Below are positions 3,398 to 41,600 of a DNA stretch of 64,000 nucleotides, piece by piece. The position numbers were made by a program, and so were the translations under genes. The DNA is from Deltaproteobacteria bacterium (GTDB lineage: Bacteria; Desulfobacterota; Desulfobaccia; Desulfobaccales; 0-14-0-80-60-11): contig JAPLJC010000033.1 of NCBI GenBank assembly GCA_026388765.1, positions 2,408-66,407 of the forward strand, written 5' to 3'. Position 1 is the stretch's first letter, and each line of letters opens with the position of its first letter. Below the pieces are notes generated by a model. That model did not search any database. It saw only the letters and a program-made list of their open reading frames with translations, and was not told the DNA's origin.

Positions 3398-3823
3398 TTA
3401 TTGCAGTTCGTACTCCACTTCGCCGTGCATGGCGGCGATGTTCATGCCATTGCCCACCTTCACCTGGCGGAAGGTCAGGACGTCGCCGGCGGTCACCAGC
3501 AAATCGGCCGCGGTAGCGGAGAGCGGGATTACCTTGGGAGTGTCGGCGCCCAGATTGACCCCCGAAGTCAGGGCCAGAGTGGCGATATCCACCGTGCCGG
3601 AGCCGTCCGCCCCGAGGTTGCGCAGGGCCAGGGTGACGGAGTTGGTGTTGGCCCCGATGACCGCGGCCTCGGCCGTGGCCTTGACCCCCTTGATCCTGAG
3701 GTCCTTATGGGCCACAAAGCGGCCGTTATTGACCGTGGCCCCCAGCGGCGCCGCCACCGCCCCGGAGCCCGCCAGGCGGGTATAGGTCATGCCGGGAATG
3801 CAAGAAGCAGGATGTCTGCCCAT
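3398..3823 (-). CDS. Small head-associated protein, paralogue 1 (possible decoration/cement protein)
   Basis: 141 aa. Clearly paralogous to 3905-4342: both share the N-terminus MGRHPASC, an internal ...NNGRFVAHKDLR... stretch and the C-terminus ...GADTPKVIPLSATAADLLV.AGDVLTFRQVKVG...EYELQ. It lies directly downstream of the capsid gene. Confidence 0.7.
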   Translation of the reverse strand: MGRHPASCIPGMTYTRLAGSGAVAAPLGATVNNGRFVAHKDLRIKGVKATAEAAVIGANTNSVTLALRNLGADGSGTVDIATLALTSGVNLGADTPKVIPLSATAADLLVTAGDVLTFRQVKVGNGMNIAAMHGEVEYELQ

Positions 3824-3840
3824 CGTTGTTCTCCTTTTTT

Positions 3841-3903
3841 GACGGAGGACCGAAGACGGAAGACGGGAGAAATTGCCCCGTCCCCGGTCTCCGGTCTCCG
3901 GTC
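3841..3903 (-). repeat. Intercistronic inverted repeat built from heptamers: (GACSGRR)x4, 7-nt loop, (YCCSGTC)x4
   Basis: Read directly from the sequence. The arms are 3841-3868 and 3876-3903. Some non-complementary positions become G:U wobbles only in the minus-sense RNA; a few true mismatches remain. The element sits between the stop at 3905 and the SD/ATG at 3823. Confidence 0.75.
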
Positions 3904-3904
3904 C

Positions 3905-4342
3905 TTATTGCAGTTCGTATTCCACTTGCCCGTGCATGGCGGGGATGGCCTGGCCGTCACCCACCTTCACCTGGCGGAAGGTCAGGACATCTCCCGCGGC
4001 CACCAGCAGATCCGCCGCGGTGGCGGAAAGCGGGATCACCTTGGGGGTGTCAGCTCCCATATTGACGGCGCTGACCAGGGCCAGGCTGGCGATATCCACC
4101 GTGCCGGCGCCGGCCGCCCCCAGATTGCGCAGGGCCAGGGAGACCGTGTCGGTGTCGGCCCCGGTGACCGCGTCCAACGCCGTGACCTTGAAGCTTTTCA
4201 CCCTCAAGTCCTTATGGGCCACAAAGCGGCCGTTGTTAATGGTCGCCAGGGTGCCCTCCAAACCCACAGTAGCGGCGGGACCGATGCCCACCAGGCGGGT
4301 GAAGGTCTCGCCGGGGGTGCAAGATGCAGGATGTCTGCCCAT
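3905..4342 (-). CDS. Small head-associated protein, paralogue 2
   Basis: 145 aa, a tandem paralogue of 3398-3823. Confidence 0.7.
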   Translation of the reverse strand: MGRHPASCTPGETFTRLVGIGPAATVGLEGTLATINNGRFVAHKDLRVKSFKVTALDAVTGADTDTVSLALRNLGAAGAGTVDIASLALVSAVNMGADTPKVIPLSATAADLLVAAGDVLTFRQVKVGDGQAIPAMHGQVEYELQ

Positions 4343-4358
4343 CTTTTTCTCCTAAAAT

Positions 4359-4422
4359 GACGGGGGGCCGGAGACCGGAGACGAAGGCACCTGCCCCGGT
4401 CCCCGGTCTCCTGTCGCGGGTC
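4359..4422 (-). repeat. Second copy of the heptamer-built inverted repeat
   Basis: Arms at 4359-4386 (GACGGGG GGCCGGA GACCGGA GACGAAG) and 4395-4422 (CCCGGTC CCCGGTC TCCTGTC GCGGGTC). It lies between the capsid stop (4427) and the SD/ATG at 4342. Confidence 0.75.
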
Positions 4423-4426
4423 TTTT

Positions 4427-6787
4427 TTAGTTGCTCACCACGTGCTTGAAAAAGCCCCGGTGCTCCAGCGGCAGAATGCCGTATTCGAACCGGAGCTTGT
4501 AGGCCAGTTTGTCCGAACTGAACATGTAGCCCTGCTGGGGCTGATCCTGGATGAAGATTTCCGGCTCTTCCCGGCCCTGCAGGAAACCGACCTCGATGGT
4601 GGGGATATCCTTGGGGTCGGCCACGGCCACCCAGTCGGTGGCGTCGTTCCAGAAGTCCAGCACCAGGTAGTCCAACCCGGTGTGCAGGGTGGGCAGGTCG
4701 GTGAGTTCGCCGCTGGCCGGCACCTTCAAGCCGGACTTGGTGAGCTCGAACATCATCTCTTCCAGCTCGTTCGGCCCCAGCAGATAACGGGGCACCAGGC
4801 CCAGGACGTCGTTGCCGTCGAAAGAGGTCTGGGAGCGCATGGCCACCCGGGTGGCGGTCAGGCCCGCGGCACTCATGGCGGTTGACCCCAGGTTGCCGTG
4901 GGCGTTATCGAACAGGGGCTTGTTGCCGCCCGCTTCTGCCGGTGTATAACCCATCACCGGGTTGGCCACGAAGATGCCGAAGAAATCCTTAAACAGGGTG
5001 CGGGCCGCGGCCCGGGCCAGGTTGATGGGGATGCGACGGATGGCCCCGACCTGATCATCGATGATCATGCGCCGGGAGAGGAACTCCAATCCGCCCAGGG
5101 TGTCCACTGCATACCCGATTTCCTGATCATTGGGGCTGGCGAGTTCCAGGTAATTGTCGTGTTGCCCCACATGCGGCAGGTCGCCGTAGCCGCCCACCCG
5201 CATGCGATAGTTCTGTCGGAAATCCTGCACCGGCACGATGTCGCTGGCGATCAGCCGCCAGGACTGGTACTGCGGCAGGTTGTATTCCGCCAGCAGCCGC
5301 CGGTACATCGAATCCCCGAAGATCTGCGCCCAGGAATCCGTCCCCAGGGCCTCTTTGAACCGGGTCAGCCCTTTGGCGTCTCCCAGGCGCCCGGTGACCA
5401 GGCGGTCGCCGGTGATCATCACGTAGGCTTCCCGGAAACTCTTAAACCGGGGCACCTTCAGGTCCTTGAGCTTCTGGTCGGTCTGGAAAAAGAAGCCGTC
5501 CAGACCGGCAATCACCTTGTCCTGCTCGGCGGCGCCGGCCGCGGCCGGGGCAAAACCCTTCAATCCCGCGGCCTCATGAAAACTGGCCAGATATTCGCGC
5601 TCATCCTTGATGCCCTGGTCCAGTTTGGCCTCGGTGAAGATCTTCCGGGCGGTGAAGTCCTTGCGCAGCTTCGTCTGGGTGATCTCCGGCAGGCCGCAGG
5701 CCACCAGCTTGGTGGAGAGCAGGTTGCGGCACTCGGCCTCCTGGAAGCGGGCCTCGGATTGCTCGATCCGCTCCAGCAGATCTTTCTGCTCCTTGGCCTT
5801 GGCCCGGTCCGCCTCCGGCACTTTGGTTTTCATGGCCTCCCGGAAGAGGGTCATAACCTCTTCCTCTTTGAGGTTCGCCTGGTCCTTGCCCTGGAGCAGC
5901 TCCGGCCGCTCCGCCTCGATCATTTTGATCATGCGTTCGATAAATTCCATCTCGTCCTTTCCTCCCGTTCCGGCGCCGTCCGCCTGGATCATTCTGATGA
6001 TCTGCCCCCCGGCCGAAGCATTCAGCACCGGGTCCACCGCGTCCACCTTGGTAATGGCCTCGGCGTAACGCACCATGCGGCCGTCCTGCCGCCGCAAACT
6101 GGCCCGGCCGTCGGCCACGATGGAAAACCCCAACAAGTCGGTCTTGCCCTGATTCCAGGCCTGCCGCATCTTGACGGCGAGCCAGGGGGCGTCCCCAGCC
6201 ACGTGAAAATGACTCACCAGGCGACCACCATCAGCCTCCTGAAATTGCACCTGGTCATGCCAGCCGACGATATTTTCGACCGAGGCGCCCTTTTCCTTCA
6301 GGTGATCGTCGTCCGAGCGCTTAAAGGCCCGGACCCCCTCGAACAGGGGCGCCGCCTCCCGGAGGACTTCCGGCGGATAGAAGGTGCCGCTCTTGGCCAG
6401 GCCCGCCGAAATCAGCGATACCAGCCACTCGTAGCCCTGATCATCCCCCGCGTCGATCATCCGGCCCGGCAGGAGCACAGGCTTGCCAGCCTGTGCCCCT
6501 TCCGCCTCTCTTAATTGCGCCGGCATCTCGGCCGTCTTCCCCATTTTCTGATAAGCGGCCCGCAACTTGGCCTTGACCCCGGCCAGCGCCGCCGCCGGCA
6601 GGTCCACTTTCTGCCCGCGGAAGCCGCCCTCGGATAAGGCCGCGGCCGCGTCCGCCAGGTGCGTCTCATCCGGCGAGCCGTCGGCCTGGAGATAAAGCAG
6701 CTTCCAGGACTCCGGGTCCTGCGGGTCGCCCACAAAAGCGAAACACTTGGCCGGTAGTTCCTGGTCGCCTACTTTTTTGGTCTTCAT
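4427..6787 (-). CDS. Prohead protease / scaffold / major capsid protein fusion (786 aa)
   Basis: The N-terminal third has the layout of a prohead serine protease (...RSDDDHLKEKG...GWHD...LLGFSIVADG...). The middle is a charged coiled-coil (EMEFIERMIKMIEAERPELL...KEQKDLLERIEQSEARFQEAE). The C-terminal ~350 aa look like an HK97-type capsid protein. Confidence 0.7.
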   Translation of the reverse strand: MKTKKVGDQELPAKCFAFVGDPQDPESWKLLYLQADGSPDETHLADAAAALSEGGFRGQKVDLPAAALAGVKAKLRAAYQKMGKTAEMPAQLREAEGAQAGKPVLLPGRMIDAGDDQGYEWLVSLISAGLAKSGTFYPPEVLREAAPLFEGVRAFKRSDDDHLKEKGASVENIVGWHDQVQFQEADGGRLVSHFHVAGDAPWLAVKMRQAWNQGKTDLLGFSIVADGRASLRRQDGRMVRYAEAITKVDAVDPVLNASAGGQIIRMIQADGAGTGGKDEMEFIERMIKMIEAERPELLQGKDQANLKEEEVMTLFREAMKTKVPEADRAKAKEQKDLLERIEQSEARFQEAECRNLLSTKLVACGLPEITQTKLRKDFTARKIFTEAKLDQGIKDEREYLASFHEAAGLKGFAPAAAGAAEQDKVIAGLDGFFFQTDQKLKDLKVPRFKSFREAYVMITGDRLVTGRLGDAKGLTRFKEALGTDSWAQIFGDSMYRRLLAEYNLPQYQSWRLIASDIVPVQDFRQNYRMRVGGYGDLPHVGQHDNYLELASPNDQEIGYAVDTLGGLEFLSRRMIIDDQVGAIRRIPINLARAAARTLFKDFFGIFVANPVMGYTPAEAGGNKPLFDNAHGNLGSTAMSAAGLTATRVAMRSQTSFDGNDVLGLVPRYLLGPNELEEMMFELTKSGLKVPASGELTDLPTLHTGLDYLVLDFWNDATDWVAVADPKDIPTIEVGFLQGREEPEIFIQDQPQQGYMFSSDKLAYKLRFEYGILPLEHRGFFKHVVSN

Positions 6788-7830: not shown

Positions 7831-7853
7831 TTAATTCCCCTTTATTCTGCCTT

Positions 7854-7888
7854 TACTGACCACTGACCACTGGCTACTGACTACTGTC
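7854..7888 (-). repeat. Tandem heptamer array, 5 x YACTGRC (minus sense GYCAGTR), copy A
   Basis: TACTGAC CACTGAC CACTGGC TACTGAC TACTGTC. It starts 1 nt from the portal stop (7890-7892) and is followed on the minus strand by AAGGC..SD..ATG (7830). Confidence 0.85.
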
Positions 7889-7889
7889 T

Positions 7890-9332
7890 CTACTTCACCG
7901 CCTTCAAGGCCCGGCGCTGGGCCGGCAGATTGTTGGTGGGGTGGGCGTCCCCGGCCGCCGCCGCAGTTTTGTCTGCGGGCAGCGCATCTTCCAGCTGATC
8001 CACCGGCTCTACTTCCGCCCCCAGCAGCGAGGCTATCTCGCAGAAGCCCCGGGCGGCCGTGTCGGCGGTCACCCAACCCTGAGTCTCGGCGATCATCAGG
8101 GCCTGGGCCGCCTGGAGCATCACCTGGCCCACCGTGGTCAGGTCCTTGGAGGAGAGCTCCGGGAAGAAGAGGTCGTATTCCCGGTTGATCCCCGCGGGCA
8201 GCACCCGCCGCATCTGCGCCTGGTCCAGGAAAAACTCGAACTGCGCCTGGAGCATGGCCTTGACCTGGCCCTGGCGGCTGCTGAGGTGCTTGATCACCGG
8301 CTCGCTCATTTCCGCCGCGGTGGAGCGGGTGGCGCCGCCGCCCTCGGCGAAGAAATGTTCGGGGAAACCCGCCCCGCCCAGAACGTAATTCTTGATCATG
8401 CGGGCGTCGTATTGGGCGTCGTGGGCCTTCAGGTCCGGGGCCACGCAGGTCCACTCGACATTTTCATTGTGGGCCCGGATACTGCCCGGCTTGGGCGCCG
8501 GGTTCTTGGCCAGAAAGTCGTCGAGTCTCTTGGGGTCGGCTCCCTTGACCAGCACGTCCCAGATCCAGGCATTGCCGAAGGCGGCCCGCTCCCCCCGGTT
8601 GAAGAGGAACTGGTTATAGAGGTCCAGGTAGTCGGCCAGGGCCACCAGGTCGCTGCGGCCCCGGGAGGCCGTGGTGACGTTGTTCACCCGGAAATAGAAG
8701 CTCTCGCCGGTGTTGAAGCCGTAGGTCTGCCCGAAGGCGTTGAGGTCCGGCGAAACCACGGTCAGGGAGCGGTTCACCGCGGTCTGGCTGATGGGCATAT
8801 CATACATCTGCCCCGCCACCTCGCCCAGTCCGTAGACCTCGATGCCGCGCACCACCCGGGCGTTATCCGGGTCCAGGTGCACCGCGGCGATGCGAGCCGG
8901 GTCGAGATAGCCCTTGCGCACAAAGCCGTCGACGGGGTTGACGTAGACCGGGTAGCACTGCTCGCCCCAGAGGCCGAATTCCAGGACCTCCTGGGGGAAG
9001 TAGAGCTCGAAGTTGTTGATCGGGTCCTTCCAGTGCCGATCCAACACGGCCTGCACCCGGTCATCCTTGGCCTCGTATTTGACCCCTTCGGCCACCACGT
9101 AATCCCGGGTCATCTGAATGATGCGCCGGGCCAGGGGGTCGGTCTCGTAGAGGTAATAGACCACCCGCAGCAGCCGGTCCTGGGCGAAGGGCAGTAGATC
9201 CCGCTGCAGGTTGCCCGACAGCCGCCGCCAGCCCTCATCGTCCGGACTACCCCCGGCCTCGCTGGGATACCAGACGGCTTCCCGGAAGGCGGTGGCGGCG
9301 GCTTTGAAGCGTTGTTTGAGTTGCAGGGCCAT
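7890..9332 (-). CDS. Portal protein
   Basis: A ~480-aa ORF between the terminase and the MuF-like gene, with portal-like sequence character. The track ORF starts at 9374. I prefer the ATG at 9332 because the hairpins at 9347-9401 would otherwise be coding. Confidence 0.8.
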   Translation of the reverse strand: MALQLKQRFKAAATAFREAVWYPSEAGGSPDDEGWRRLSGNLQRDLLPFAQDRLLRVVYYLYETDPLARRIIQMTRDYVVAEGVKYEAKDDRVQAVLDRHWKDPINNFELYFPQEVLEFGLWGEQCYPVYVNPVDGFVRKGYLDPARIAAVHLDPDNARVVRGIEVYGLGEVAGQMYDMPISQTAVNRSLTVVSPDLNAFGQTYGFNTGESFYFRVNNVTTASRGRSDLVALADYLDLYNQFLFNRGERAAFGNAWIWDVLVKGADPKRLDDFLAKNPAPKPGSIRAHNENVEWTCVAPDLKAHDAQYDARMIKNYVLGGAGFPEHFFAEGGGATRSTAAEMSEPVIKHLSSRQGQVKAMLQAQFEFFLDQAQMRRVLPAGINREYDLFFPELSSKDLTTVGQVMLQAAQALMIAETQGWVTADTAARGFCEIASLLGAEVEPVDQLEDALPADKTAAAAGDAHPTNNLPAQRRALKAVK

Positions 9333-9397
9333 ATCAACCTTTAGTGGCACAGGCTTCCGGCCTGTGATCCTCATGGTCGGCGGGCGGGACGCCCGCC

Positions 9398-9679
9398 CTA
9401 CACTTCCGTCTCTTCAGCCGTCACCGGCTCGAACCTGGTCCGAAATTCCTCATCGTCATAAAGAAAGCGGTCTTCAACCCCGAGATCTGATCCCAGGATT
9501 TCCCAAAGGCCCGAAGAAGATTGCACCGCCTCGATGATCTCCGGCCGGCGCCGGAACTTCCGGCCGCTCCAGGACGGTTTAGGCCCGGCGACCTTTTCGG
9601 GAGGATCGGGCCAGGGAGCCGGCCGTTCCATCTTGGCCATTTTGGGCCTTTCCACGCCTGGAGTTTTCTGCTTAGCCAT
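9398..9679 (-). CDS. Small hypothetical phage protein (93 aa)
   Basis: ATG at 9679 with a GAGGGAAG SD. The track's GTG start at 9703 would lie inside the heptamer array. Confidence 0.5.
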   Translation of the reverse strand: MAKQKTPGVERPKMAKMERPAPWPDPPEKVAGPKPSWSGRKFRRRPEIIEAVQSSSGLWEILGSDLGVEDRFLYDDEEFRTRFEPVTAEETEV

Positions 9680-9700
9680 GCTTCCCTCGCTTTGGCCTTT

Positions 9701-9735
9701 CACTGGCTACTGGCTACTGATTACTGGCTACTGCC
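9701..9735 (-). repeat. Tandem heptamer array, copy B
   Basis: CACTGGC TACTGGC TACTGAT TACTGGC TACTGCC. It starts 2 nt from the TerL stop (9738-9740) and is followed on the minus strand by AAAGGCC..SD..ATG (9679). Confidence 0.85.
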
Positions 9736-9737: not shown

Positions 9738-11300
9738 CTAATGCAGCCTCCCAAAACTCTGCCGAAAGCCGTCCGGCCGGCCGCTGCGGTAGGTGCCAAA
9801 ATCCGGGTCGGCGCCAACACTGACAGGCACAAAACAATATTTTTGCAGCAGGCTCACTGCACCCTCCAGGGCATCAGGACCATCGTCATGAACGGTTTTA
9901 TTGAGGATGTAGACCAACTGCTCCCGGAGGCGGTCCTGGTCGCTGTGGCCGCGCTCAAAGGTGATTTTGCCGTGCTCCACCAGGTAGGCCAGGGTGTTGA
10001 TGATCCGGGCCTCTTTATTGGTGCGATGATCTACCGGCACCCAACTGATATAGCGCCCCACCTTCAGAGCGTAATTGTCGATGGCCTCTTTCAAAAAATC
10101 CTTGAGCATGTTTTCTTCGATGCCCATCGGACCGCCGTAATCATCACTAATCCGATAACAGGCATCGAGCATGCCCCCGGGCGAGGCATGGCGAATATAG
10201 GCATGCAGGCAGCGGTACATCCCCGCCTTGGGGTCCCAACCCACCGCCGCGATGGCCTTGAAATCGCTGGCCTCCGCCTGAGTGGCACTGGGATCGCAGA
10301 AGGACGCCACCATCAGGTCCTTCATGACAATTTCGGCGGCGGTATGAAATTTGAACCAAGTTTCGGGGAAAGGGCTGTCTTCGGCGACGCAGAGATTGCG
10401 CATCTCCCGGTTGAAATTAACCGTGGTCATCAACTTGCGCTTGGCCCGGAGACGCTCCAGGGGCCAGTGCGCCGGCCACAGGGCCCGCTCGTCCGGGGTG
10501 CCTTCATCCAGCCAGGAGTCATAAACCCGCGAGATATACAGCGGCGCGCCGTCCTCCTCGTCCTTCATGGCGATGAGCTGCGACAAGACGCTCTTGGGGT
10601 GGAAGAGGTTGCCCACCATAATAAAGGTGTAGTCTTCCCCCATCGAGCCCATAACCGAGCCTTGCAAGAAATCTATGGCCGCCTTAATCAACCTGGGGTT
10701 AAGGACATTCTAGTCATTTTCAAAGTCATCCACATCCACTTCATCGGGCCGGTATTGCCGGTTGCGCAGCCCCCGGATTTTATCCTTGTGGCCCCGGGCC
10801 AGGACCCAGATGCCGGTGTTGGTGATGAAGCTGCCCTTACCCCAGGCCGGCCCCAGCAATTTCCCGAAGTCGTGCTTCAGCCTCGGGTTGTCCTCCAGCT
10901 CCATGCCGATGGCCAGGGTAAAGGTGGTGGCCTGCTCATTGGTGTCGCTCAGGATGATAATGAAATGCTTCAAGGCGAAACAAATCTTAAAGAGCTTGTC
11001 CCCCAGGGTGAAGAAGGTGGATTTGCCGAATTCCCGGGGCACCGCCATCAACAGGACGGCATTTTGCAGATCTGCCAGGTCAGCCCATTCCTGATGGAAT
11101 TCTCCAAACGGTTTGGTGAAATAATGCGGCAGGTAGGTGCGCATGAAGTACAACTTGTCGTGCCGGGCCCGCTCGATCCGGGCCTGTTGTTTCTCCGGCG
11201 TGTCGTTTTCGAAGGGCGAGACTGAATCCTGAATCCAGCCCCGGAGCTCGGCGGCGAACTGGTCGAAGTGGTATTCGCTGATTTTAGGCCGCTTGCGCAT
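9738..11300 (-). pseudogene. terL: Terminase large subunit interrupted by a single in-frame TAG at 10710-10712
   Basis: The N-terminal ORF 10710-11300 has Walker A (PREFGKST) and Walker B (IIILSD). The C-terminal ORF 9738-10691 is the nuclease half. Both are in the same frame, and the reverse complement of 10681-10712 reads TAG AAT GTC CTT AAC CCC AGG TTG ATT AAG. Confidence 0.85.
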
Positions 11301-11811
11301 GGTCTCTCTTGAAGCGCTCCACGATCAGATCAAAACTCCGGGCGAAAACCTTGAGGCCCTCGGGGTCCTTCTCCCGCAAAACCTTGGCGATGAACTGCAT
11401 GTCCTCTAAAAACAGGGCCGGTCGGTCGATTTCCGGGGCCGGGGTTTCCTCCGGACGCCGGGCGCCGGCCGCCGACTTCTTATCCAGCCGGACAAAGGCA
11501 TAAACCTTTTGAGGATCTAGCGTGCTCCGGGCCACGTCGAGCAGCTCCCGCATCAACAGAAGTTTGTCGCGCTCGATCTGCTTGAGAGTCCCCTGCCGTT
11601 CGTCCCGCTTCTCCGGCCAACTCTGGCCTTCGTTTTTCTTATCCTCCTCCGACCAACGCTTCAGTTGGCTGACGGAGACCCCTTTGTCTTCGCCGCACAC
11701 CTCTTTGACGATGGCCCGGGAGGCCTTGGCCACCTCCTCGAAATTCAGGCCGCCCTCAACGTAGAGTTCTTCGGCCCGGAACCTGACGGAGAGGGGATAT
11801 TCCTGCGGCAT
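11284..11811 (-). CDS. Putative terminase small subunit
   Basis: 175-aa ORF immediately upstream of TerL, overlapping it by 17 nt. It has an N-terminal HTH-like segment. The call rests on position. Confidence 0.5.
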   Translation of the reverse strand: MPQEYPLSVRFRAEELYVEGGLNFEEVAKASRAIVKEVCGEDKGVSVSQLKRWSEEDKKNEGQSWPEKRDERQGTLKQIERDKLLLMRELLDVARSTLDPQKVYAFVRLDKKSAAGARRPEETPAPEIDRPALFLEDMQFIAKVLREKDPEGLKVFARSFDLIVERFKRDHAQAA

Positions 11812-12466: not shown

Positions 12467-12694
12467 CTATTGCCCCGCGCCCGGGCCGGCGTCGATGCCG
12501 GGAAATTCTTCGGGAGGGGCCGGCGTGCCATCCTTGTTGAGCTTTAGCGTCCTCTGGATGATCTGCGCGACAGCGGTGATGACCAGCAACAGCGCCCCGG
12601 CCGCATCCACCTGGCCGGAAAGGTATGCCGTGGTCGCCGCCAGGACTGACAGCAGGCCCACTCGCACCGTGTTGGATTGCAGGTATTTATTCAT
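12467..12694 (-). CDS. Holin-like small membrane protein (75 aa)
   Basis: The ATG at 12694 gives MNKYLQSNTVRVGLLSVLAATTAYL...AGALLLVITAVAQII, with two hydrophobic helices. It lies in the lysis cassette. Confidence 0.5.
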   Translation of the reverse strand: MNKYLQSNTVRVGLLSVLAATTAYLSGQVDAAGALLLVITAVAQIIQRTLKLNKDGTPAPPEEFPGIDAGPGAGQ

Positions 12695-17221: not shown

Positions 17222-17716
17222 CTACTGTTCCTTGACCTCGTAGGCGTATGTCTCTTTCGTCTCGCGCCGGGTGCCGATGAGGGCCAGGGCCGCGTCGGGC
17301 CATTCGTTTTTGTCCTCCAGCACGTCCCAATCCACCGCGGCGGTGCGCCGGATGGCCTCCTCAAAGCCATATTTCATCAGGTTGGCCAGGACATCCACCT
17401 TGCGGGGTTTGACCACGTAGTCCTCTCGGGCGTAGAGCAGGGCGCCGTGCGGCAGGTCCAGGGAATAGGACTCCAGGATCACCTCTGGAAATAAGTCGGC
17501 CCGGTGCGCCTTCATGAAATCCTTCAATTCCTTATCGAGGTAAGCCACCCGGCGCTGTTGCCAGTCGATCTTGCCCTGGGAGGCCTGAAAGGCCCGCAGC
17601 TCTTCGGCCAACTTGGCCTGGAGGCGGTCCAACTCCACCTGCGCCTCCCGGATCGCCGCCAATTGCCGGTCCGCCTCGGCCTGGATCGGCGAGGCGAAGT
17701 ATTTTTTGGTGCTCAT
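17222..17716 (-). CDS. gam: Host-nuclease inhibitor Gam (Mu Gam family)
   Basis: 164 aa with an N-terminal coiled-coil (AEADRQLAAIREAQVELDRLQAKLAEEL). Size and architecture match Mu Gam, and it lies in the early region of a Mu-like phage. Confidence 0.7.
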   Translation of the reverse strand: MSTKKYFASPIQAEADRQLAAIREAQVELDRLQAKLAEELRAFQASQGKIDWQQRRVAYLDKELKDFMKAHRADLFPEVILESYSLDLPHGALLYAREDYVVKPRKVDVLANLMKYGFEEAIRRTAAVDWDVLEDKNEWPDAALALIGTRRETKETYAYEVKEQ

Positions 17717-19634: not shown

Positions 19635-19831
19635 GGCCGGCAGACCGAAGACGGAGGACCGGAGACCGGGGCTTCCGCCTCCATGTCCTCGAAATACGGC
19701 TGAAAGACATCCTCGTCCAGCCGCAGCATCAGGCCGCCGCAGGCGGCGCAGATGGCCGTGTGGTCATCCAACCCGGCCACCCGCTGGTCCCGGCCGCCGC
19801 AATCCACGCACTGGTATTCGTAAGTCGGCAT
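19631..19831 (-). CDS. FmdB-family CxxC zinc-ribbon protein
   Basis: The N-terminus MPTYEYQCVDCG plus a second CAACG pair is the hallmark of the FmdB/Zn-ribbon regulatory family. Confidence 0.65.
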   Translation of the reverse strand: MPTYEYQCVDCGGRDQRVAGLDDHTAICAACGGLMLRLDEDVFQPYFEDMEAEAPVSGPPSSVCRP

Positions 19832-22357: not shown

Positions 22358-22587
22358 ATTATCTCCGCCGCCAACTTGTCGGCCCGGCGGGTGGGACAGC
22401 CGCGGCTGTGCCGGACCTGGCCGTCCTCGGTCTCGTTGGCCGCTTTAGCTCCCGGCGTGCCGCTGCAAAAGACGCAGTATTCGCCGCTGGTGTAATCCCC
22501 GCCCTCTTGAATCAGCCGATCCACCAGCCGCCGATAGCGCCGCAGCAGGGACCGCCGCCGGGACATTTCTGTGGGCTTGGCCATCAC
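22354..22587 (-). CDS. Hypothetical early protein (Cys pairs)
   Basis: 77-aa ORF containing CVFC...GC. Confidence 0.5.
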   Translation of the reverse strand: MMAKPTEMSRRRSLLRRYRRLVDRLIQEGGDYTSGEYCVFCSGTPGAKAANETEDGQVRHSRGCPTRRADKLAAEII

Positions 22588-22784
22588 TTCTCACCCAACT
22601 CGCTCACCGCGGCAACCGGAATAATCACCACCGGGGCTGGCAGGGCCGCCCGCTTATTGATGGCGCCGAAAAATTGCACGGTGTTGTCCACCCCGGACAA
22701 ATTACCGACCCGGCCCACCAGGATGAAGGTTTCCCCCTCAAATTCCGCTTCCCCGAGATCCGACAAGAGTTCTTCCACCTGCAT
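22584..22784 (-). CDS. Hypothetical early protein
   Basis: 66-aa ORF. An SD (AAGGAGGGG) precedes the ATG at 22784. Confidence 0.5.
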   Translation of the reverse strand: MQVEELLSDLGEAEFEGETFILVGRVGNLSGVDNTVQFFGAINKRAALPAPVVIIPVAAVSELGEK

Positions 22785-22802: not shown

Positions 22803-22836
22803 TACTGACTACTGGCTACTGACTACTGGTACTGCC
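22803..22836 (-). repeat. Tandem heptamer array, copy C
   Basis: TACTGAC TACTGGC TACTGAC TACTGGT ACTGCC. It starts 1 nt from the stop at 22838-22840 and is followed on the minus strand by AAGGCAAAGGAGGGGTCGATG. Confidence 0.85.
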
Positions 22837-22837: not shown

Positions 22838-23434
22838 TCATTCCTCCAGCCGGCTCACCGCCAGCCGCGCCTGGGCGATGGCCCGCAGGCTCTCGCCGTT
22901 TTTCCCCGGACACTCCTGGGCCACCCGGGCAAAGGCCCCGTCCAGCGAGGCCAGGGCTTCTTGCTGCCGCCGCCGGGCCCGCAGTTGCCGCAGGCGTTCG
23001 CCGTTGCTGTCCGCCGGCGGCTTCGGCCCGAGATCCTTGATCAGGCGATAGCGGCCCGGCTGGCCCTTTCCGGCCTCGTTCCGCACCAGACCCAGGCGCA
23101 GCATGGACTTGTACCAATCCCGGACCGTATGCGGGCTGGCCCCGGATTGCAGGCTCATCTCCTCCGCCGTCAGCACCAGGTGGATGCGCTGCAGATTCCA
23201 CATGATCTCCTTGAGCTCCGGCCGCTCCTCCCGCCCCAGCCGGCGCCAGCGCCCCGGCCCCAGGTGCTCCAGCTCGCCGTATTTGGCCAGGTCCTTGAGC
23301 GCCCCGCCGAGCCGGTTGCGGCGCTCGTCGGTGCACAATTCCAGGAGGTCGCCGGCCTGGCGGCTGGTGAAGGTCTGCCCCACCGGAAAGATGGCGATCA
23401 CCTGGCGCAACCGGTCGTTGAAGGAACCTTTCAT
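22838..23434 (-). CDS. Hypothetical early protein with winged-helix-like segments
   Basis: 198-aa ORF immediately downstream of the MuB-like gene. Confidence 0.55.
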   Translation of the reverse strand: MKGSFNDRLRQVIAIFPVGQTFTSRQAGDLLELCTDERRNRLGGALKDLAKYGELEHLGPGRWRRLGREERPELKEIMWNLQRIHLVLTAEEMSLQSGASPHTVRDWYKSMLRLGLVRNEAGKGQPGRYRLIKDLGPKPPADSNGERLRQLRARRRQQEALASLDGAFARVAQECPGKNGESLRAIAQARLAVSRLEE

Positions 23435-24225
23435 CTGCCGCCCGCCGGCTCCTCGTCCAGAATCAGCCGGGCCAGGTCCTCGGTGATCCGGCTGGTCTTT
23501 TTGGCATTGGCCAGGCTCACCAGTTTGACGGTGCGGTTGCGGATCATGCGCCAGTCGCCGCCATACGGGGCCTGGTTCAGGAGCAAGGCCGCGGCCGGCT
23601 CGATCTTGAGCTCAGCCGACTTCCAACCGTAATTCATGATGGCCTGGGCCTCCACCGCCTCGAACCGCACTCCGCCCAGACTCCGGGACCACAGCCGGGA
23701 GTTCGCCCGCATGACTTCATCCATCTTGAGTTCGCCGATGAGGATGAAGGCGGCGCCGGAGAGGTCGGCCAGGTCGCGCATCAGATCCAGGTGCTTAGGG
23801 ATGCGGTCGGCTTCATCAATGAAGACGACGCGCTGTTTGGCCGGCCGTTGCAGCAGATGTTCTATGGCCCAGTCGATGCAGCGGCTGCGGTTGCGCTGCG
23901 GGGTTTCCTGGCCCAATTCCCGGCAAAGCCGCATCAGGAAGGGCAAGGTGCTGTTCTTCCAGTCCTCCCGCACCCGGATATGCGGCAACCTATGGGCCGC
24001 GGCGTGGATGGCCGAGGTGTCGGTTTTGCCTTCGCCGGCCGGACCCCAAATATAGTCGAGACAACCCTTGCCCGCCATCTGGGCGATGGTCTCCATCCGG
24101 GCCAGGAACTCCTGCTCGTTGCGGGTCTCCACCCAGGCCGGGGCGAATTTTAGGCACTTCCAGGGCTCCGGGGCCTTGGCCTCGGGCCGGATCTGCGTCA
24201 CGGCGCTGCTTTTTTCTGTTGCCAT
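23431..24225 (-). CDS. MuB-like transposition ATPase (AAA+)
   Basis: Walker A (GPAGEGKT) and Walker B (VVFIDEAD). The gene lies directly downstream of the transposase. Confidence 0.8.
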   Translation of the reverse strand: MATEKSSAVTQIRPEAKAPEPWKCLKFAPAWVETRNEQEFLARMETIAQMAGKGCLDYIWGPAGEGKTDTSAIHAAAHRLPHIRVREDWKNSTLPFLMRLCRELGQETPQRNRSRCIDWAIEHLLQRPAKQRVVFIDEADRIPKHLDLMRDLADLSGAAFILIGELKMDEVMRANSRLWSRSLGGVRFEAVEAQAIMNYGWKSAELKIEPAAALLLNQAPYGGDWRMIRNRTVKLVSLANAKKTSRITEDLARLILDEEPAGGR

Positions 24226-24369
24226 TCAGACCTCCGTAAAGCCGTTACAAGTTTCCCCGGGCGCCATAGCCCTGTCGTAAAAAGGCGATTCATAGTTATT
24301 GCAAGTGCCAAACATTTCACACTCTTCTGCCTCTTGCCAATGCTCGCAGAATTCGCAGGTTTCCTTCAC
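24226..24369 (-). CDS. Small Cys-rich ORF (47 aa) between the transposase and the ATPase, speculative
   Basis: The GTG start overlaps the transposase stop (GTGA). It begins KETCEFCEHW...GTCNN...ETCNG and lies in a lower-GC patch. Confidence 0.3.
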   Translation of the reverse strand: MKETCEFCEHWQEAEECEMFGTCNNYESPFYDRAMAPGETCNGFTEV

Positions 24370-26708
24370 TCCCACACCTCCGTCGCCGCCTGCAGTTTCA
24401 CTGCCTCGAACCACGCCTCCAGGCGCCGGTAACTATCGCTCTTCTCGAACCAGTGCCTGGCCTGCCGCTGTTCCGGGTTGAGTTTGCCGCCCCGGGCCAG
24501 GGCCTTAATGATGGCCACGTATTCCTGCACCTCGGGCGACTCCTTCAAGTCCTCCAGGACCTGCTGCCGCTGCCGGGCGATGTTGGCCAGCTCCGCCGCT
24601 CCGTCCTCGATCTTCCGGTCCCGGGCCGCATCGGGCACCAGCCGCAGGGCGGCCCGGTCGTCATAGTCCTGAAGTTCCCGGTAAGCCCCGCCCTGGTAAT
24701 CCGCCGCCCCGAAACCGGCCACGGCCACCTTGGGCTTGGGCATAACCGCCAGTTGCCGGCCGTAATCCATCGGACCGCACAACCCCTCGGCCAGCTTGCG
24801 GTTGCCCTTGTGCGCCCGGACGATGCGCGCCTTGGCCTTGATATGCTCCTCCAGGTCCAGGCCGCCCCGCAGGCCGTTGTGCACCGTGCAGATGAAAGGC
24901 CCGGGCTGGCCGTTTTCCAGGCATTCCCAGATGGTGCCCCGGGTGACGTCGGCCAGCGACGGCTTGAAAATCACCCGCTTGCCCTGGAAATTCTGCACCC
25001 GCTCCATCCCCGCGGCGCTGTCCGCCATATAGGCGCCCAGCATCCCGCCCCAACTGAAGCCGGAGTTGTAGGTGCGCTCGAAGGCCGGCGCCATCAGGGT
25101 GTCCAGGTGCTCGGGGGAGGCGATGCGGGGCGCCCGCTTGGGCGAGTTGGCCTGGCGTTCCCACACCAGGCCGCTGCGGCCGAGCCGGCAGTCCTTGAAG
25201 CGGTGCGTCTCGGCCCGGTAGACCTTCTCCAGCCAGTCGGTGACCACCGCCTTCAATTCCGCCGCCGTGGCCCCGCAGGAGAGCTTCACCGGGTTCTTCT
25301 GGTGGTAAAAGACCTCCTGGAAGCGCTGAAATTCGTCGATGCGCTTGCGCTGCACCGGGTTGTGGCCCACGTACCAGGGCAGGGCCTCGAACAGCATCCG
25401 GGCCATCGAGCCGAAAAAGGTCTCGACGTGGGGTTTCTGCCAGGGGGCGTAGGCGTCGCAGTCCCGCTGGGCGATGCCCATCTGGGCGCAGGCCGTGCGG
25501 ATGTGCTGGCTCTTGAAGATCATGCCCCGGTCGCCGATGATCCACTCCGGTACACCCCAGGCCAGGAACCCCTGGCGAAACAACTTGGCCACCGTCAGTG
25601 AGGTGGCGTGCTTCTCCACTTCGATGATGGCGTCCCGGCTGAAGATGTCCACCGCCGCCAGGATCTCGTGGCGGCCGTCGGCCAGCATGACGTCGGCCGG
25701 GGTGGCGTCGATCTCCCAACGCTCGCCGAAATAGCCGGCCTGTTCGCCGGAGAGGCCGCCCTTGGGCTGAAATTGCGCCCGCCAGAACGACGGCAGGCAG
25801 ATGGCCGCCAGCTTCTCTTGTTCCTTATAGAGGAAGGACTCCAAAAACTTGGTGAAGTGGCCGTAGTGGGGGAGGTGCGTGTGCTGTGCGAACTCCGCCT
25901 TCAGCCGCCGGTAGATCAGGGCCTTGTTGCACTCCAGCCTGGTAGCACAGGCATCCCTGCCTGTGGAACTTTTAGGCCACAACTTCACCTGGCCCTTCCA
26001 GAACAGGGCGGTGATGTAGGCCTTCATGTCCGGGGTCATGGTCTGGACGCCCAGGCCCGGCTTCTGATAAGTCCCGTCCGCCTGGAGGCCGTAGCCCCGC
26101 CCCAGGGCGCACAGCCCCGGCGAGTTCTCCTGCTTCGCCGCCCACTTGTAGGACGTTTGCCAGGAGACCTTTTTAATATTCGCCAGGACCTCGGGGATCT
26201 CGTGGGGCTCGAACCCCAGGTCGGCTAATTCTTGATAAACCGCCGCGCTTGGCTCCGACCTTTGCTTTTTCCTGGCCCCTGACCACTGCCACCTTAGCAC
26301 CGCGTTCAGCCGGCCGTAAAATTCCTTCAAGGCCGCGGTCTTGCCTCCTGCCCGGCTCAGACAAAAATTCGCCCCTGCCCGCAACACCGCCGTCCGGGCC
26401 AGGGCTACCTTCATTTCCTTTGGCGTCAGCCTCATGATTTTGGGGGCCTCTTTGACCCGGGCCGCCATTGCCCCTTCCTGCACCATCTGCCAGCCCGTCG
26501 CCGTATCCCGGCGCACCTCCCAGGCCGTGATAGCCTGGCGCACATCCTCAGGCAGGGAGATATAGAGGTAGAGTTTCTTGATGCCGCCCCGGCCTCTACC
26601 CTTTTCGGTACGAAATAACCATTTTTCAGCAAAGGCCCGCACTTTCACCGCCTGGGGCGTTATTCCCATAGCCTCTGAAATCTCGGCCACTGTATAAAGT
26701 TCCTTCAT
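24366..26708 (-). CDS. MuA-like DDE transposase
   Basis: 780 aa with an N-terminal HTH (YTVAEISEAMGITPQAVKVR). The rve-type core shows WEIDATPADV (D), IIGDRGMIFKS (D) and QKPHVETFF (E). Confidence 0.9.
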   Translation of the reverse strand: MKELYTVAEISEAMGITPQAVKVRAFAEKWLFRTEKGRGRGGIKKLYLYISLPEDVRQAITAWEVRRDTATGWQMVQEGAMAARVKEAPKIMRLTPKEMKVALARTAVLRAGANFCLSRAGGKTAALKEFYGRLNAVLRWQWSGARKKQRSEPSAAVYQELADLGFEPHEIPEVLANIKKVSWQTSYKWAAKQENSPGLCALGRGYGLQADGTYQKPGLGVQTMTPDMKAYITALFWKGQVKLWPKSSTGRDACATRLECNKALIYRRLKAEFAQHTHLPHYGHFTKFLESFLYKEQEKLAAICLPSFWRAQFQPKGGLSGEQAGYFGERWEIDATPADVMLADGRHEILAAVDIFSRDAIIEVEKHATSLTVAKLFRQGFLAWGVPEWIIGDRGMIFKSQHIRTACAQMGIAQRDCDAYAPWQKPHVETFFGSMARMLFEALPWYVGHNPVQRKRIDEFQRFQEVFYHQKNPVKLSCGATAAELKAVVTDWLEKVYRAETHRFKDCRLGRSGLVWERQANSPKRAPRIASPEHLDTLMAPAFERTYNSGFSWGGMLGAYMADSAAGMERVQNFQGKRVIFKPSLADVTRGTIWECLENGQPGPFICTVHNGLRGGLDLEEHIKAKARIVRAHKGNRKLAEGLCGPMDYGRQLAVMPKPKVAVAGFGAADYQGGAYRELQDYDDRAALRLVPDAARDRKIEDGAAELANIARQRQQVLEDLKESPEVQEYVAIIKALARGGKLNPEQRQARHWFEKSDSYRRLEAWFEAVKLQAATEVWE

Positions 26709-27916: not shown

Positions 27917-28012
27917 GGGACCACCTCTTAATTATTTGACTGTTAAAACCATGTATAAATCAATAAATTGATTGTTGCAAGCAAAAAATTGCGTTATCCA
28001 TCAATTTTTTAA

Positions 28013-28121
28013 TTGCTAAGTCGTTTTTTTGCCTAAACCTTTATTAATAATTATATCACTTAGTTAAGGCACTTTTTTAGGTTGCTAAGTCATTTGCTAA
28101 GTCGAGCCTGCGACTTAGCAA
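28013..28121. promoter_or_regulatory. Operator array: TTGCTAAGTC x3 direct (28013-22, 28082-91, 28094-103) plus an inverted copy GACTTAGCAA (28112-21)
   Basis: Exact 10-mers read in the AT-rich divergent region. The last direct copy and the inverted copy form a palindrome with an 8-bp spacer. Confidence 0.6.
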
Positions 28122-28135
28122 CCAAAGTTGGCCCC

Positions 28136-28543
28136 ATGAACCTCCAGGAACGCCTAAAATTGGTCATGCAAGATTCCGGTTTGACAATTCCTGATTTCGC
28201 TAAAAAATTGAGTGTCGCAGGAAGTACTCTTGTCAACTACCGCGATGGCCGGACCTCTCCCACCTTTGATCTGCTCATGAAGATTTGTACGGAATTTTCG
28301 ATAAATCCTGACTGGTTATTGCTGGGCAAGGGAGGTATACACCCCGGCGAGGCCGATGAAGCCGGCCGGCTGGCCCATATCGACCTGGCAGTGCAGCTGG
28401 TGGAGGAGGCGGTTAACGAAACCGGGGTACAGATCACCCCGCTTCAGAAGATCGCCCTGGTGCAGCTCATCCGAGAGGAGCTAAAAACCCGCACCATCGA
28501 CATCCTCAAGGTTATAAAAGGTGGAGGGACTAAAGGTGGCTAA
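28136..28543 (+). CDS. Phage repressor (XRE-family HTH)
   Basis: MNLQERLKLVMQDSGLTIPDFAKKLSVAGSTLVNYRDGRTSP...DWLLLGKGG is typical of a phage c/CI-like N-domain. The ATG at 28136 is preferred because the track's TTG start at 28082 lies on the operators. Confidence 0.75.
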   Translation: MNLQERLKLVMQDSGLTIPDFAKKLSVAGSTLVNYRDGRTSPTFDLLMKICTEFSINPDWLLLGKGGIHPGEADEAGRLAHIDLAVQLVEEAVNETGVQITPLQKIALVQLIREELKTRTIDILKVIKGGGTKGG

Positions 28544-29213
28544 CGACGACCTAAAGGACAAAATCAAGAAGGGTTTGGAAGATTTAGAACGCTCTCGCAG
28601 TAATGTTGTGAAATTTCCACCCAAGACAGTCAGAAAGAACCGAAAGAAAAAGGAACCAACGATTTATCAATCTATTGAAGGCAATAACAACACGCAATTT
28701 GTCGGCAATCCTGTTTTTAGTATGCACCCCCCAAAGGTTACCGTTGCTCCGCCCCCGAATAGTATCGGTGCTGATCCCTTGCTTAAACAATCCATCATGG
28801 AACGATTTAATAAGTTGGGAGAATTATATAATAATCGCTTCCCTGGCAAGGGTTTTGCTATTTTGCATGGCAATTTTAAAAAAGATTTCGGGATAACAAA
28901 TCAAAACTATACCATTTATAATCAGTGGCCCCTCGGCATGGCTCCTTATGTCATTAATTATCTTGATGATCTGTATGTATATACTGTTTCTGGCAGATTT
29001 GCCCAGCGGATGATTAATAAGGATTACCTGCAAACCAAGAATTATTGTAAAAAGAGAGAAAAGGAGTTGACGAAAGAGTTAAATCTAAATATAAATGGTC
29101 CAGAGATGATCCAGTGGCTTTATCAGCGTTTTATGGTATCTTCCTATCAGCAGCTTGACCGACTTCAACATAATCTATTTGTTACATATTTGGAAGATAT
29201 GGTTCTCAAATGA
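28521..29213 (+). CDS. AT-rich accessory protein of unknown function (about 225-230 aa), translationally coupled to the repressor
   Basis: ORF track entry. The alternative GTG at 28536 overlaps the repressor stop (28541-28543). It is visibly AT-rich and I recognise no motif. Confidence 0.6.
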   Translation: MEGLKVANDDLKDKIKKGLEDLERSRSNVVKFPPKTVRKNRKKKEPTIYQSIEGNNNTQFVGNPVFSMHPPKVTVAPPPNSIGADPLLKQSIMERFNKLGELYNNRFPGKGFAILHGNFKKDFGITNQNYTIYNQWPLGMAPYVINYLDDLYVYTVSGRFAQRMINKDYLQTKNYCKKREKELTKELNLNINGPEMIQWLYQRFMVSSYQQLDRLQHNLFVTYLEDMVLK

Positions 29214-29270
29214 AGTAATACACAGATTGGCCTCCGGCCGACCTAATTCATAAACAGGAGGATTAATTAA

Positions 29271-29648
29271 ATGCTTATATCTCTTAGAAGGTTAGTTGTT
29301 TTGGCAATTGTGCTTTTATTTGCCTTGGTTGCCATTTCTCAAGCCGCCGAAACCTCCATGAAAGAGATGTACCTGATCGTAAGTAAGTACGCCAAAGCAG
29401 ACATTAATCGGGTTGAGTTCGAAAAGGCTATGGGAAATGCTGAAGCCGAATTTGATTTATTTAAAGATTCTAAGATTGCCAAGAAAAACCCTGAGTTCAC
29501 TGAGCACATAGCTAAGGCTATGGAGGCTATTAAGAGCGCTGGTTTTTTTACTTTTGTGGCCCCTTCTCCTAAAGGCAGTCAACAACGGGAAGCTGCCTGG
29601 AAAGCTACCAAAAGAGAGCTTGAGGCTGCCAAACAATACTTAAAATAG
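29271..29648 (+). CDS. AT-rich secreted/periplasmic helical protein (125 aa), unknown function
   Basis: The N-terminus MLISLRRLVVLAIVLLFALVAISQAAE looks like a signal peptide. An SD (AGGAGGA) lies upstream. Confidence 0.65.
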   Translation: MLISLRRLVVLAIVLLFALVAISQAAETSMKEMYLIVSKYAKADINRVEFEKAMGNAEAEFDLFKDSKIAKKNPEFTEHIAKAMEAIKSAGFFTFVAPSPKGSQQREAAWKATKRELEAAKQYLK

Positions 29649-29800
29649 ATGGAATAACTATTAATGGGGCGGCCTGCCTGGCCAGCTCGCCGCCGGCAAA
29701 TTCTCGTTGCCGCCGCTGGGACGTTGTTCCCTACGCCGTCCTCCCCGATGGTGGCCACGGCCCCTGGTGCCCCAATTGTAAGCTCCCGATCCAAAAATAA

Positions 29801-29818
29801 AGGCGGCCCCAGCCGCCT
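29801..29818 (+). terminator. Possible intrinsic terminator after the accessory module
   Basis: AGGCGG-ccccag-CCGCCT followed by AACCTTTTCTCATTTT. Confidence 0.35.
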
Positions 29819-29823
29819 AACCT

Positions 29824-29964
29824 TTTCTCATTTTGCATGCGCACCCAACTTTTTTTAACCCTTTTTCTCATTTCCCCATTTTTTTCTCCTCTCCCCTTAA
29901 CTCCCTAAAAGTCCCCCAAAAGTTCCCTTCTCGTCTCATCAACCCCGCGCCTTTCCTTTCTCAT
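29824..29964 (-). repeat. G-poor end region with TTTCTCAT motifs (29824-31, 29864-71, 29957-64; variant GTCTCAT near 29933): candidate transposase-binding sites
   Basis: The motifs were read directly. Measured from a putative CA terminus at 29969-29970, the spacing is about 7, 100 and 140 nt, which resembles the Mu L1/L2/L3 layout. Confidence 0.35.
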
Positions 29965-29969
29965 ATCCC

Positions 29970-30296
29970 ATGCTCCCCCCCACTCCCCCAGCAAAGCCCA
30001 CAATTCATCCTGGCTCACGGCGTTGTGACCCGGGCCATGACGTAGTGATGGTCGGCGCCGGTATCCTGGAGTTGGCCGGCGCCTATCATATCCTGCAGGC
30101 ACGCCGGGGCCTCGCTCCCCTGGCTGAGATCACGGTTGACCGGCGAGGTGAACAGGTCCCGGTAGGGCGCGGCGCTCCTGGCCGTGGTGCCCCGGCCTGC
30201 GGCGGCTTCAAGATGTTGGGGACCAACGCCGAGGCCGGCGGTCCCGATTGCCTGCGGCTGTTCCTGGAGATGAAGAGCGTGGCCGAGCATTGGTAA
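29970..30296 (+). pseudogene. Short FAD/NAD(P)-binding oxidoreductase-like remnant
   Basis: Contains the Rossmann fingerprint HDVVMVGAGILELAGAYHILQARRG, but the ORF stops after about 85 further codons and no credible start lies close upstream of the motif. Confidence 0.3.
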
Positions 30297-33602: not shown

Positions 33603-34130
33603 TTCTCCTACCGTTCTGACCTACGCCGGTGTTGTCGATAAGTGACTAGAAATCACCAAGCCATTTAGAGATCCGCTGATCATCGCCGGCTTATCCCCTC
33701 CCCCCAAAAAAAACCTAGAGCTCCGTTAATTAATCGGGCTCTAGGTAAAAACAGGTTTGCCATATTCAATTCGGCAATCCCGCTACCATAACCCGAAGGC
33801 TTTAGGCCGGAGACTTTGCGTCCTACCCTTTCGGGCAGTTTGCCTTTTCGATGATCTGGTTTGCATCTTTGCCTATTTAACTACCTCCGTAAATAGGGGA
33901 TTCCCTGATTCTGGTGGGGTAAATTCCCTAAAAATTAGATAAGTTCCAGCCAAAAGTTTGCTGACCACAGGAATAAAGGGGGAATAGTCGAGGCGAATTG
34001 CCGACGGCTGGCGTCGCAGCAATTCGCCCCGGCTTTCTCTTAAAGGTAAGGAAAAGGGAAGGGCAAAGGTTAAAACAAATCTAGATCTATCTCCTTATCC
34101 GGCTCCTTATCCGGGAAAAATTTTAAAGCA

Positions 34131-34934: not shown

Positions 34935-34956
34935 CTTCTTACCCCTTCCGTGGCTC

Positions 34957-35913: not shown

Positions 35914-36006
35914 ATTAGCCTCCTTTGAACTTGTTTAAACCACACTTTGCCGTGAAAATTCTTTGTAGGGGCGGCTCGCGAGCCGCCCCTACTGCCTCTC
36001 GTCTCC

Positions 36007-37431: not shown

Positions 37432-37570
37432 ACGCCACCTCCAAGGTTCCTTCTCGCAAAGAAGGTGTTTCGGTTAGAAGGTCGAAGCTCAGGGCAGGGC
37501 TGGTCTCAGAAGAAAACCAGGGGCCAGGCGCGAGCCAGGGGCTCCATCCTTGCCTGTCAATGCCATATAG

Positions 37571-37658
37571 GAAAAATAGGGACACTTCCTATTTTTCCTA
37601 GTTATTTCCCGTCATATTAAGGTTTTGCTTTGAAAAATAGGAAGTGTCCCTATTTTTC
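37571..37658. repeat. 88-bp element with 27-bp terminal inverted repeats (GAAAAATAGGGACACTTCCTATTTTTC ... GAAAAATAGGAAGTGTCCCTATTTTTC), copy 1
   Basis: Arms at 37571-37597 and 37632-37658. A second copy lies at 62001-62085 with a related spacer. Confidence 0.85.
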
Positions 37659-37661
37659 AGG

Positions 37662-39014: not shown

Positions 39015-39050
39015 GCTGTTTCCTCCCAGAAAGTTTACGGAAGCCTAAGG

Positions 39051-41578: not shown

Positions 41579-41600
41579 AGTAAATCCTTATTTCCTTGTC

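Follow-up and report, generated by a model that had tools for sequence, protein, structure and literature searches.

A terminase large subunit gene interrupted by an in-frame amber codon in a Mu-like prophage of a Desulfobaccales bacterium

We analysed a stretch of 64,000 nucleotides (nt; hereafter the window) from a Deltaproteobacteria bacterium of the order Desulfobaccales (GCA_026388765.1, contig JAPLJC010000033.1, forward-strand positions 2,408 to 66,407), which carries a Mu-like prophage whose terminase large subunit (TerL) gene is interrupted by a single in-frame amber codon. On the minus strand, positions 10742-10683 run from GAA GTG GAT through GAA AAT GAC to the TAG and continue from AAT GTC CTT to TTG ATT AAG, the translation across the interruption being DDFEND-stop-NVLNPRLIK. 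The TAG shares its frame with the upstream open reading frame (ORF) of 196 amino acids (aa) and with the 323 codons downstream, where the mechanically called ORF begins at TTG 10691 (Table 1). A TerL gene split by one amber codon had been put forward in the original prediction, and both direct reading of the sequence and the collinear profile match described below bear this out; the ten codons that it quoted were correct, while the range given for them (10681-10712) differs trivially from the actual 10683-10712.

The joined 520-aa product gave a single collinear match to PHROG 38 (terminase large subunit), with residues 15-499 aligned to profile positions 233-717 (E 1e-65). Matched separately, the N-terminal part covered profile positions 233-414 and the C-terminal part positions 441-717. 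Pfam returned nothing above the gathering score for TerL, the top match being Terminase-T7_RNaseH-like (E 0.094), and a family-profile sequence search of solved structures gave zero matches at E values up to 1. The 196-aa fragment is annotated at NCBI as hypothetical protein NTY36_01315 (MCX5888074.1). Based on its motif and its location after strand 81-86 in a structural model of a close homologue (P0001), we infer that GKST is the Walker A motif. Across 41 homologues R89, E90, K93, S94 and T95 are invariant, as are D191, D192 and E194 in the Walker B region, and all family-invariant residues are retained on both sides of the stop, including D336, E395, D472, D473 and D476 of the nuclease. 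The profile match thus spans both domains, Walker A and B are in place and the fold, judged on P0001, is that of an ATPase followed by a nuclease; what is missing is one continuous reading frame, with TAG at codon 197. Read with the standard code, the locus as it stands is a TerL pseudogene carrying a nonsense codon.

Exact-protein look-ups in the Logan assemblies of public sequencing runs recovered 17 contigs with the 196-aa product and 11 with the 304-aa product called from the downstream part. Twelve Logan contigs from independent assemblies of 12 runs, which belong to three accession series (ERR153021xx/22x, SRR25046533, SRR20698638 and SRR20698650), all carried the TAG and all contained GAAAATGACTAGAATGTCC, with 99.9-100% identity to the window over 1.4-8.5 kb. 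Private single-nucleotide polymorphisms (SNPs) were found in two of them, one each, both synonymous. The stop is genuine, because the same TAG occurs in 12 independently assembled contigs. The source is a 69,233-bp contig of a metagenome-assembled genome (MAG; locus tags NTY36_), on which the neighbouring host proteins group with proteins of Desulfobaccales MAGs. Single-base errors do occur in such assemblies; a sequencing or assembly error, which would have undone the original prediction, is nevertheless extremely improbable here, given the recurrence of the codon in 12 runs, two of which have SNPs of their own elsewhere. The 12 contigs represent one clone and are therefore uninformative on selection.

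Approximately 1,200 relatives were recovered from 5.8 billion protein clusters, and the best 120 of them were examined. All but one of these were single proteins of about 490-550 aa, the remaining one being this clone's own C-terminal fragment, which contradicts the notion that the two halves are normally separate genes. The nearest intact relative, P0001, has 83% identity, followed by P0002 (81%), P0003 (75%) and P0006 (about 71-72%). Among reference-genome loci, 75 of 77 had an uninterrupted TerL (a single tblastn match), and the other two were broken elsewhere, one by a frameshift (L044) and one by a frameshift and an in-frame stop (L075). The former (L044, 10001-11454) belongs to Candidatus Electronema sp. 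JM and has its frameshift near codon 68; the latter (L075, 851-2484) is from an uncultured Desulfobacterales MAG, its break being independent of that in L044. A search with the N-terminal fragment found no further protein ending at DDFEND, other short matches being frameshifted or cut by contig ends, and no near-identical allele turned up in JGI metagenome contigs or IMG/VR when the stop was replaced by NNN in a DNA pattern search. Among the sequences compared, TAG at codon 197 is unique to this clone.

The column holding the stop sits within the conserved DDFEND-x-NVxNP and is itself variable, with Glu in 74 of 119 homologues, Thr in 18, Ile in 10, Val in six, Lys in five, Gln in three, and Ser, Leu and Ala in one each. 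The original prediction had asked which residue homologues would have at the TAG; Glu is the commonest, and Gln (CAA) is found in L092 (P0006), the locally most similar relative, which reads DEVVVDDFENDQNVLNPKLIK against DEVDVDDFEND-stop-NVLNPRLIK in the window. ATC (Ile) is the codon of the closest relatives and is found in L090, L091 and L034. Gln, Glu, Lys, Ser and Leu, all of which occur in the column, each have a codon one substitution from TAG, so that the TAG may plausibly have arisen in one step, for example from CAG.

To place the stop in the fold we used an AlphaFold model of P0001, made with a 41-sequence alignment (mean predicted local distance difference test score 83.8). In this model the Walker B strand (187-191) is followed by a loop (192-201), a helix (202-219) and a core strand (225-230) that terminates in the invariant G230-N231, probably the coupling motif, and the nuclease sheet begins at about residues 317-330. 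The top Foldseek matches of the model were the TerL of PhiV-1 (E 8e-17), T4 gp17, HK97 and Sf6, together with isolated nuclease domains; alignments extended over about 290 columns for ATPase-only structures and about 200 columns for nuclease-only structures. Residue 197, the equivalent of the TAG, falls in the loop between the Walker B strand and helix 202-219. On this model the stop cuts the ATPase fold itself, five codons past the Walker B aspartates and ahead of the next core helix and strand. Because the model puts residue 197 inside the ATPase domain, the stop is not at a linker joining ATPase and nuclease ORFs. Two earlier descriptions need revision accordingly: the TAG had been placed in a linker after the Walker B/coupling region, and the model locates it straight after Walker B, upstream of the strand with the probable coupling motif; the downstream ORF had been called a nuclease ORF, and by model and Foldseek it also holds the last third of the ATPase domain.

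A functional split TerL would require termination at the TAG and re-initiation at TTG 10691 or ATG 10654, with fragments of 196 aa and roughly 304-317 aa reassembling. Start codons are indeed available 18 and 55 nt past the stop, the ATG being preceded at 7 nt by a weak AAGG, and gene callers predict the 304-aa product. The break lies in a loop of the model, but this loop belongs to the Rossmann core, where it separates Walker B from the helix and strand that follow, rather than marking a domain boundary, and re-initiation would lose N198, V199, N201 and P202, each at least 90% conserved. With 0 of about 200 relatives examined split at this position, we consider such an arrangement highly improbable.

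Apart from the stop, the gene shows little sign of erosion. The window TerL deviates at six columns of at least 95% conservation, intact homologues having a median of two and as many as 12, and it has one radical singleton substitution against a median of one. General decay of the gene was rejected, since these counts fall inside the range of intact homologues. The singleton stands out: Asp189 (GAT, 10734-10736) lies in the hydrophobic Walker B strand, and in 120 sequences Asp occurs there in the window only, the 119 homologues having Val (61), Ile (43), Thr (six), Ser (three), or Leu, Ala or Cys (two each). Judged from this alignment, Asp189 is probably a second damaging change in TerL. The Asp189 codon yields a GTGGAT-GTGGAT direct repeat (10731-10742, minus strand), the relatives reading GTG GTG GTG GAT, and a templated two-base change is possible, eight codons before the TAG.

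The use of TAG elsewhere in the window bears on whether the codon is recoded. TAG terminates 14 of the 74 predicted ORFs, including portal (7890), TerL (9738), ORF 9398-9703 and host genes, and TerL alone has coding sequence that continues beyond a stop. These observations agree with the original prediction, which had judged global reassignment unlikely and had named portal, TerL and the same third ORF as ending in TAG, as the listing of stop codons confirmed. Same-frame ORFs also abut at TAG 2769-2771 and 12467-12469; these were rejected as further cases, being separate genes with their own ATG that are separate in relatives too. No tRNA was found in the 64-kb window by ARAGORN or Rfam, the tail end of the prophage lying outside it, and no pyl-type gene among 40 window ORFs scanned with Pfam; the check for a suppressor tRNA or pyl genes proposed in the original prediction was thus run on the window and came back empty. 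The RNA around and after the TAG (141 nt) folds no better than shuffled sequences (z = 0.27). Programmed bypass of the T4 gene 60 type was rejected in the absence of significant local structure; moreover, there is no gap to bypass, because the codons right after the TAG (NVLNP) align with the NVxNP of the homologues.

Phage-wide reassignment of TAG for late genes, as in crAss-like, Lak and other gut phages, would fit the identity of TerL as a late gene. In recoded phages, where TAG encodes Gln, late genes are reported to be those with in-frame TAG (Borges et al., bioRxiv 10.1101/2021.08.26.457843), and the window shares with them a late gene, of the structural or packaging class, that contains a TAG in frame. 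Recoded phages differ in having many in-frame TAGs, avoiding TAG as a terminator and usually carrying a suppressor tRNA. Here the roughly 28 kb of prophage contain a single in-frame TAG; portal, TerL and other phage genes end in TAG as an ordinary terminator; the standard code gives full-length products for the remaining prophage genes; and no phage-borne tRNA(CUA) is present in the window. We assign this explanation next to no probability.

Read-through at the one site deserves more attention. Were the TAG decoded often enough for working full-length TerL, through a host amber-suppressor tRNA, pyrrolysine or near-cognate insertion of Gln, Tyr or Lys, the prophage would stay viable, with packaging possibly throttled or conditional on the suppression state of the host. 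The stop does occupy a column that tolerates at least nine residues, and the Gln of L092 is the usual near-cognate insertion at UAG, but TAG itself is kept in no relative. The base following the stop is A, and stronger termination contexts than UAG-A exist in E. coli; a capsid requires only a few TerL molecules. Efficient suppression would, however, extend many proteins, because TAG is the normal terminator of neighbouring late and host genes, and neither a stimulatory RNA structure nor, in the 64-kb window, a tRNA or pyl gene was detected. The 323 downstream codons are conserved as in intact homologues, with all invariant residues kept, and TAG is the sole allele in all samples seen; the argument from lack of decay is nevertheless weightless, given contigs of 99.9-100% identity. 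Asp189 in the Walker B strand, as a second and probably damaging change, also speaks against a working product, and we found no literature joining pyrrolysine with Desulfobaccales. On balance we regard read-through as unlikely. A more elaborate form, in which the amber codon acts as a switch so that full-length terminase, and hence virions, would be made only when the host decodes UAG by a substrate-induced pyrrolysine system or a suppressor tRNA, is very unlikely, and nothing in the window supports it. If true, the switch would make release of a Mu-like phage depend on the physiological state of the host, and UAG suppression or pyrrolysine decoding in the host would make this a natural example in which decoding of a stop codon controls phage production.

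We consider it probable that a recent, clone-specific nonsense mutation has left an otherwise intact Mu-like prophage packaging-defective. This was the first option of the original prediction and is the best supported, given the single-gene homologues, the unique stop, the variable column and the lack of a recoding signal in the window. In the proposed sequence of events, a single recent point mutation would have changed a sense codon, most simply CAG (Gln), to TAG at TerL codon 197, and standard-code translation would halt five residues past the Walker B aspartates. The resulting 196-aa product would lack NVxNP, the next helix and core strand with the probable coupling motif, the rest of the ATPase and the whole nuclease. 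As this product would be without the coupling motif, the remaining ATPase and the nuclease, the prophage would be packaging-defective: still maintained, and probably still able to transpose and lyse, but presumably without efficient cutting and packaging of DNA. The occurrence of TerL pseudogenes elsewhere in the family (L044 and L075) supports a knockout, and amber mutations in TerL genes (lambda A, T4 gene 17) are lethal in non-suppressing hosts.

Several observations weigh against a packaging knockout. Beyond the TAG and Asp189 the gene is without decay, its deviation counts lying within the range of intact homologues, and all catalytic and invariant residues past the stop are retained; this absence of decay is as compatible with ongoing selection for a read-through product as with a very recent mutation. 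Within a strongly conserved motif, the stop occupies one of the few columns that vary, as would be expected of a tolerated suppression site. TAG is the sole allele in 12 of 12 runs from three accession series and is thus fixed in the sampled population; the two SNPs among the Logan contigs are synonymous, their number (n = 2) being too few to weigh. In addition, the tRNA and pyl searches cover the 64-kb window of the host genome.

A packaging knockout of this kind is an ordinary finding, a fresh instance of a well-known type of event. It resembles the classical terminase amber mutants (lambda Aam, T4 gene 17 am) and point knockouts in defective or cryptic prophages, with one nonsense codon, the rest intact and an amber suppressor needed. 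It differs from the classical mutants in having arisen naturally in an uncultured Desulfobaccales-type host and become fixed in the sampled population, with no suppressor host known. For annotation, two 'hypothetical proteins' of the MAG are halves of one terminase gene, and the prophage is to be scored as packaging-defective despite its complete look, which completeness tools would miss. The locus also offers a picture of early prophage decay, with one nonsense codon, one odd Walker B substitution and all else intact.

Table 1 Coordinates of the interrupted TerL gene and other prophage features within the window
Feature	Position	Strand	Evidence
TerL N-terminal fragment, aa 1-196 (N-terminal helices and ATPase core through Walker B)	10713..11300	-	PHROG 38 E 6e-27; 83% identity to P0001 aa 1-196
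TerL C-terminal part, aa 198-520 (NVxNP, rest of ATPase to ~aa 300, RNase H-like nuclease ~aa 317-487)	9741..10709	-	PHROG 38 E 4e-32; model and Foldseek
Putative Walker A, G92-K93-S94-T95 (PREFGKST)	11016..11027	-	Motif and location after model strand 81-86
Walker B region, E187-V-D-V-D191-D192-F-E194	10719..10742	-	Strand 187-191 in P0001 model; invariant residues
In-frame amber TAG, TerL codon 197	10710..10712	-	Direct sequence reading; in 12/12 Logan contigs
Natural stop of TerL, likewise TAG	9738..9740	-	Direct reading
DUF1804-like DNA-binding protein, directly upstream of TerL	11284..11811	-	PHROG 756 E 1.5e-5; Pfam DUF1804 E 0.003, below gathering score
Portal gene, intact, TAG terminator	7890..9374	-	PHROG 10963 E 6e-41; 72% identical to portal beside P0001
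Protease-capsid fusion gene, intact	4427..6787	-	Pfam Phage_capsid_4 E 6.5e-37; PHROG 29592 E 6e-146; PHROG 4523 'major head and protease protein'
Mu Gam-like gene	17222..17716	-	Pfam Phage_Mu_Gam E 5e-19
Mu-type transposition module	23431..26708	-	Pfam rve E 5.6e-8; AAA_22 E 1e-11
rve-domain transposase	24366-26708	-	
AAA+ MuB-like protein	23431-24225	-	

The surrounding prophage is Mu-like by gene content, with an rve transposase, a MuB-like AAA+ protein, Gam, and a late region comprising DUF1804-like, TerL and portal genes. Further prophage genes include Bro-N and a peptidoglycan (PG)-binding lysis enzyme, with a Ner-like protein and an XRE repressor at the left end, and host genes start at approximately 30 kb of the window. 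All prophage genes with homologues in related loci are full length except TerL, which is the one broken gene in the visible part of the prophage. The DUF1804-like gene overlaps the TerL start by 17 nt and is full length against its relatives (175/175 aa); its product is a probable Mu gp27-type small terminase.

Prophages of the Desulfobaccales and Desulfobacterales relatives (P0001, P0002, P0003 and P0006) share the TerL family, length and invariant motifs as well as a Mu-like neighbourhood (GemA, Gam, Portal_Mu and Phage_Mu_F). They differ in having Ile, Ser or Gln codons at the TAG position and Val, Ile or Thr at 189. The closest cultured relatives are the TerL proteins of the Pseudomonas Mu-like phages MP42, JBD30, JBD69 and DMS3 (D3112-like), with 29.5% identity over 98% of the protein. 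These phages have in common with the window an rve transposase, a MuB-like ATPase, Gam and a DUF1804-like gene directly upstream of TerL, followed by portal, whereas their TerL is uninterrupted and of low identity, and the head module of the window prophage uses a protease-capsid fusion.

Several repeat families were observed in the prophage. Arrays of four to five tandem heptamers CAGTRRY (e.g. CAGTAGCCAGTAGTCAGTAG) occupy three intergenic gaps on the minus strand, at 7854-7886 past the portal stop, 9701-9733 past the TerL stop and 22803-22834 before gene 22584-22784, the pattern having eight matches against zero expected. Each array is followed by AAAGGC and the ribosome-binding site of the next gene, and each contains stops in all three frames because the period is seven and most units contain TAG or TAA. 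The motif also occurs in a Desulfobaccales Mu-like prophage (L062, 8279-8318) and is absent from the other relatives' loci compared. Three independent Logan contigs (L001-L003) end at 7852-7857, inside the array past the portal gene, which suggests that the repeat breaks short-read assemblies. Inverted repeats made up of heptamer units (GGAGACC...GGTCTCC) at 3820-3910, 4355-4430 and 19637-19669 form hairpins downstream of capsid-proximal genes and may be terminators or mRNA-stabilising stem-loops. One such hairpin follows each of two tandem paralogous genes on the minus strand (3398-3823, 141 aa; 3905-4342, 145 aa) just downstream of the 786-aa protease-capsid fusion; the paralogues have no homologue in the related loci compared and may encode decoration or head-accessory proteins. 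An AT-rich block (28000-30000; GC content 0.45 versus about 0.60 elsewhere) lies beside the XRE repressor gene (28082-28543, plus strand) and holds two plus-strand ORFs (28521-29213 and 29271-29648); it may represent cargo at the left end of the prophage that is expressed during lysogeny.

On the host side, a minus-strand cluster at 34131-47407 resembles a leucine/isovalerate degradation pathway, with an isovaleryl-CoA dehydrogenase-like protein, a carboxyltransferase (methylcrotonyl-CoA carboxylase beta-like), two enoyl-CoA hydratases, a 3-hydroxy-3-methylglutaryl-CoA (HMG-CoA) lyase-like protein, family III and family I CoA-transferases and a short-chain fatty acid transporter. A cyclic di-GMP (c-di-GMP)-I riboswitch aptamer was detected at 33770-33854 on the minus strand (82.6 bits, E 9.5e-15), approximately 170 nt upstream of a PAS-PAS-GAF-GGDEF diguanylate cyclase gene (31251-33602); if the aptamer regulates this gene, c-di-GMP would control a c-di-GMP synthase.

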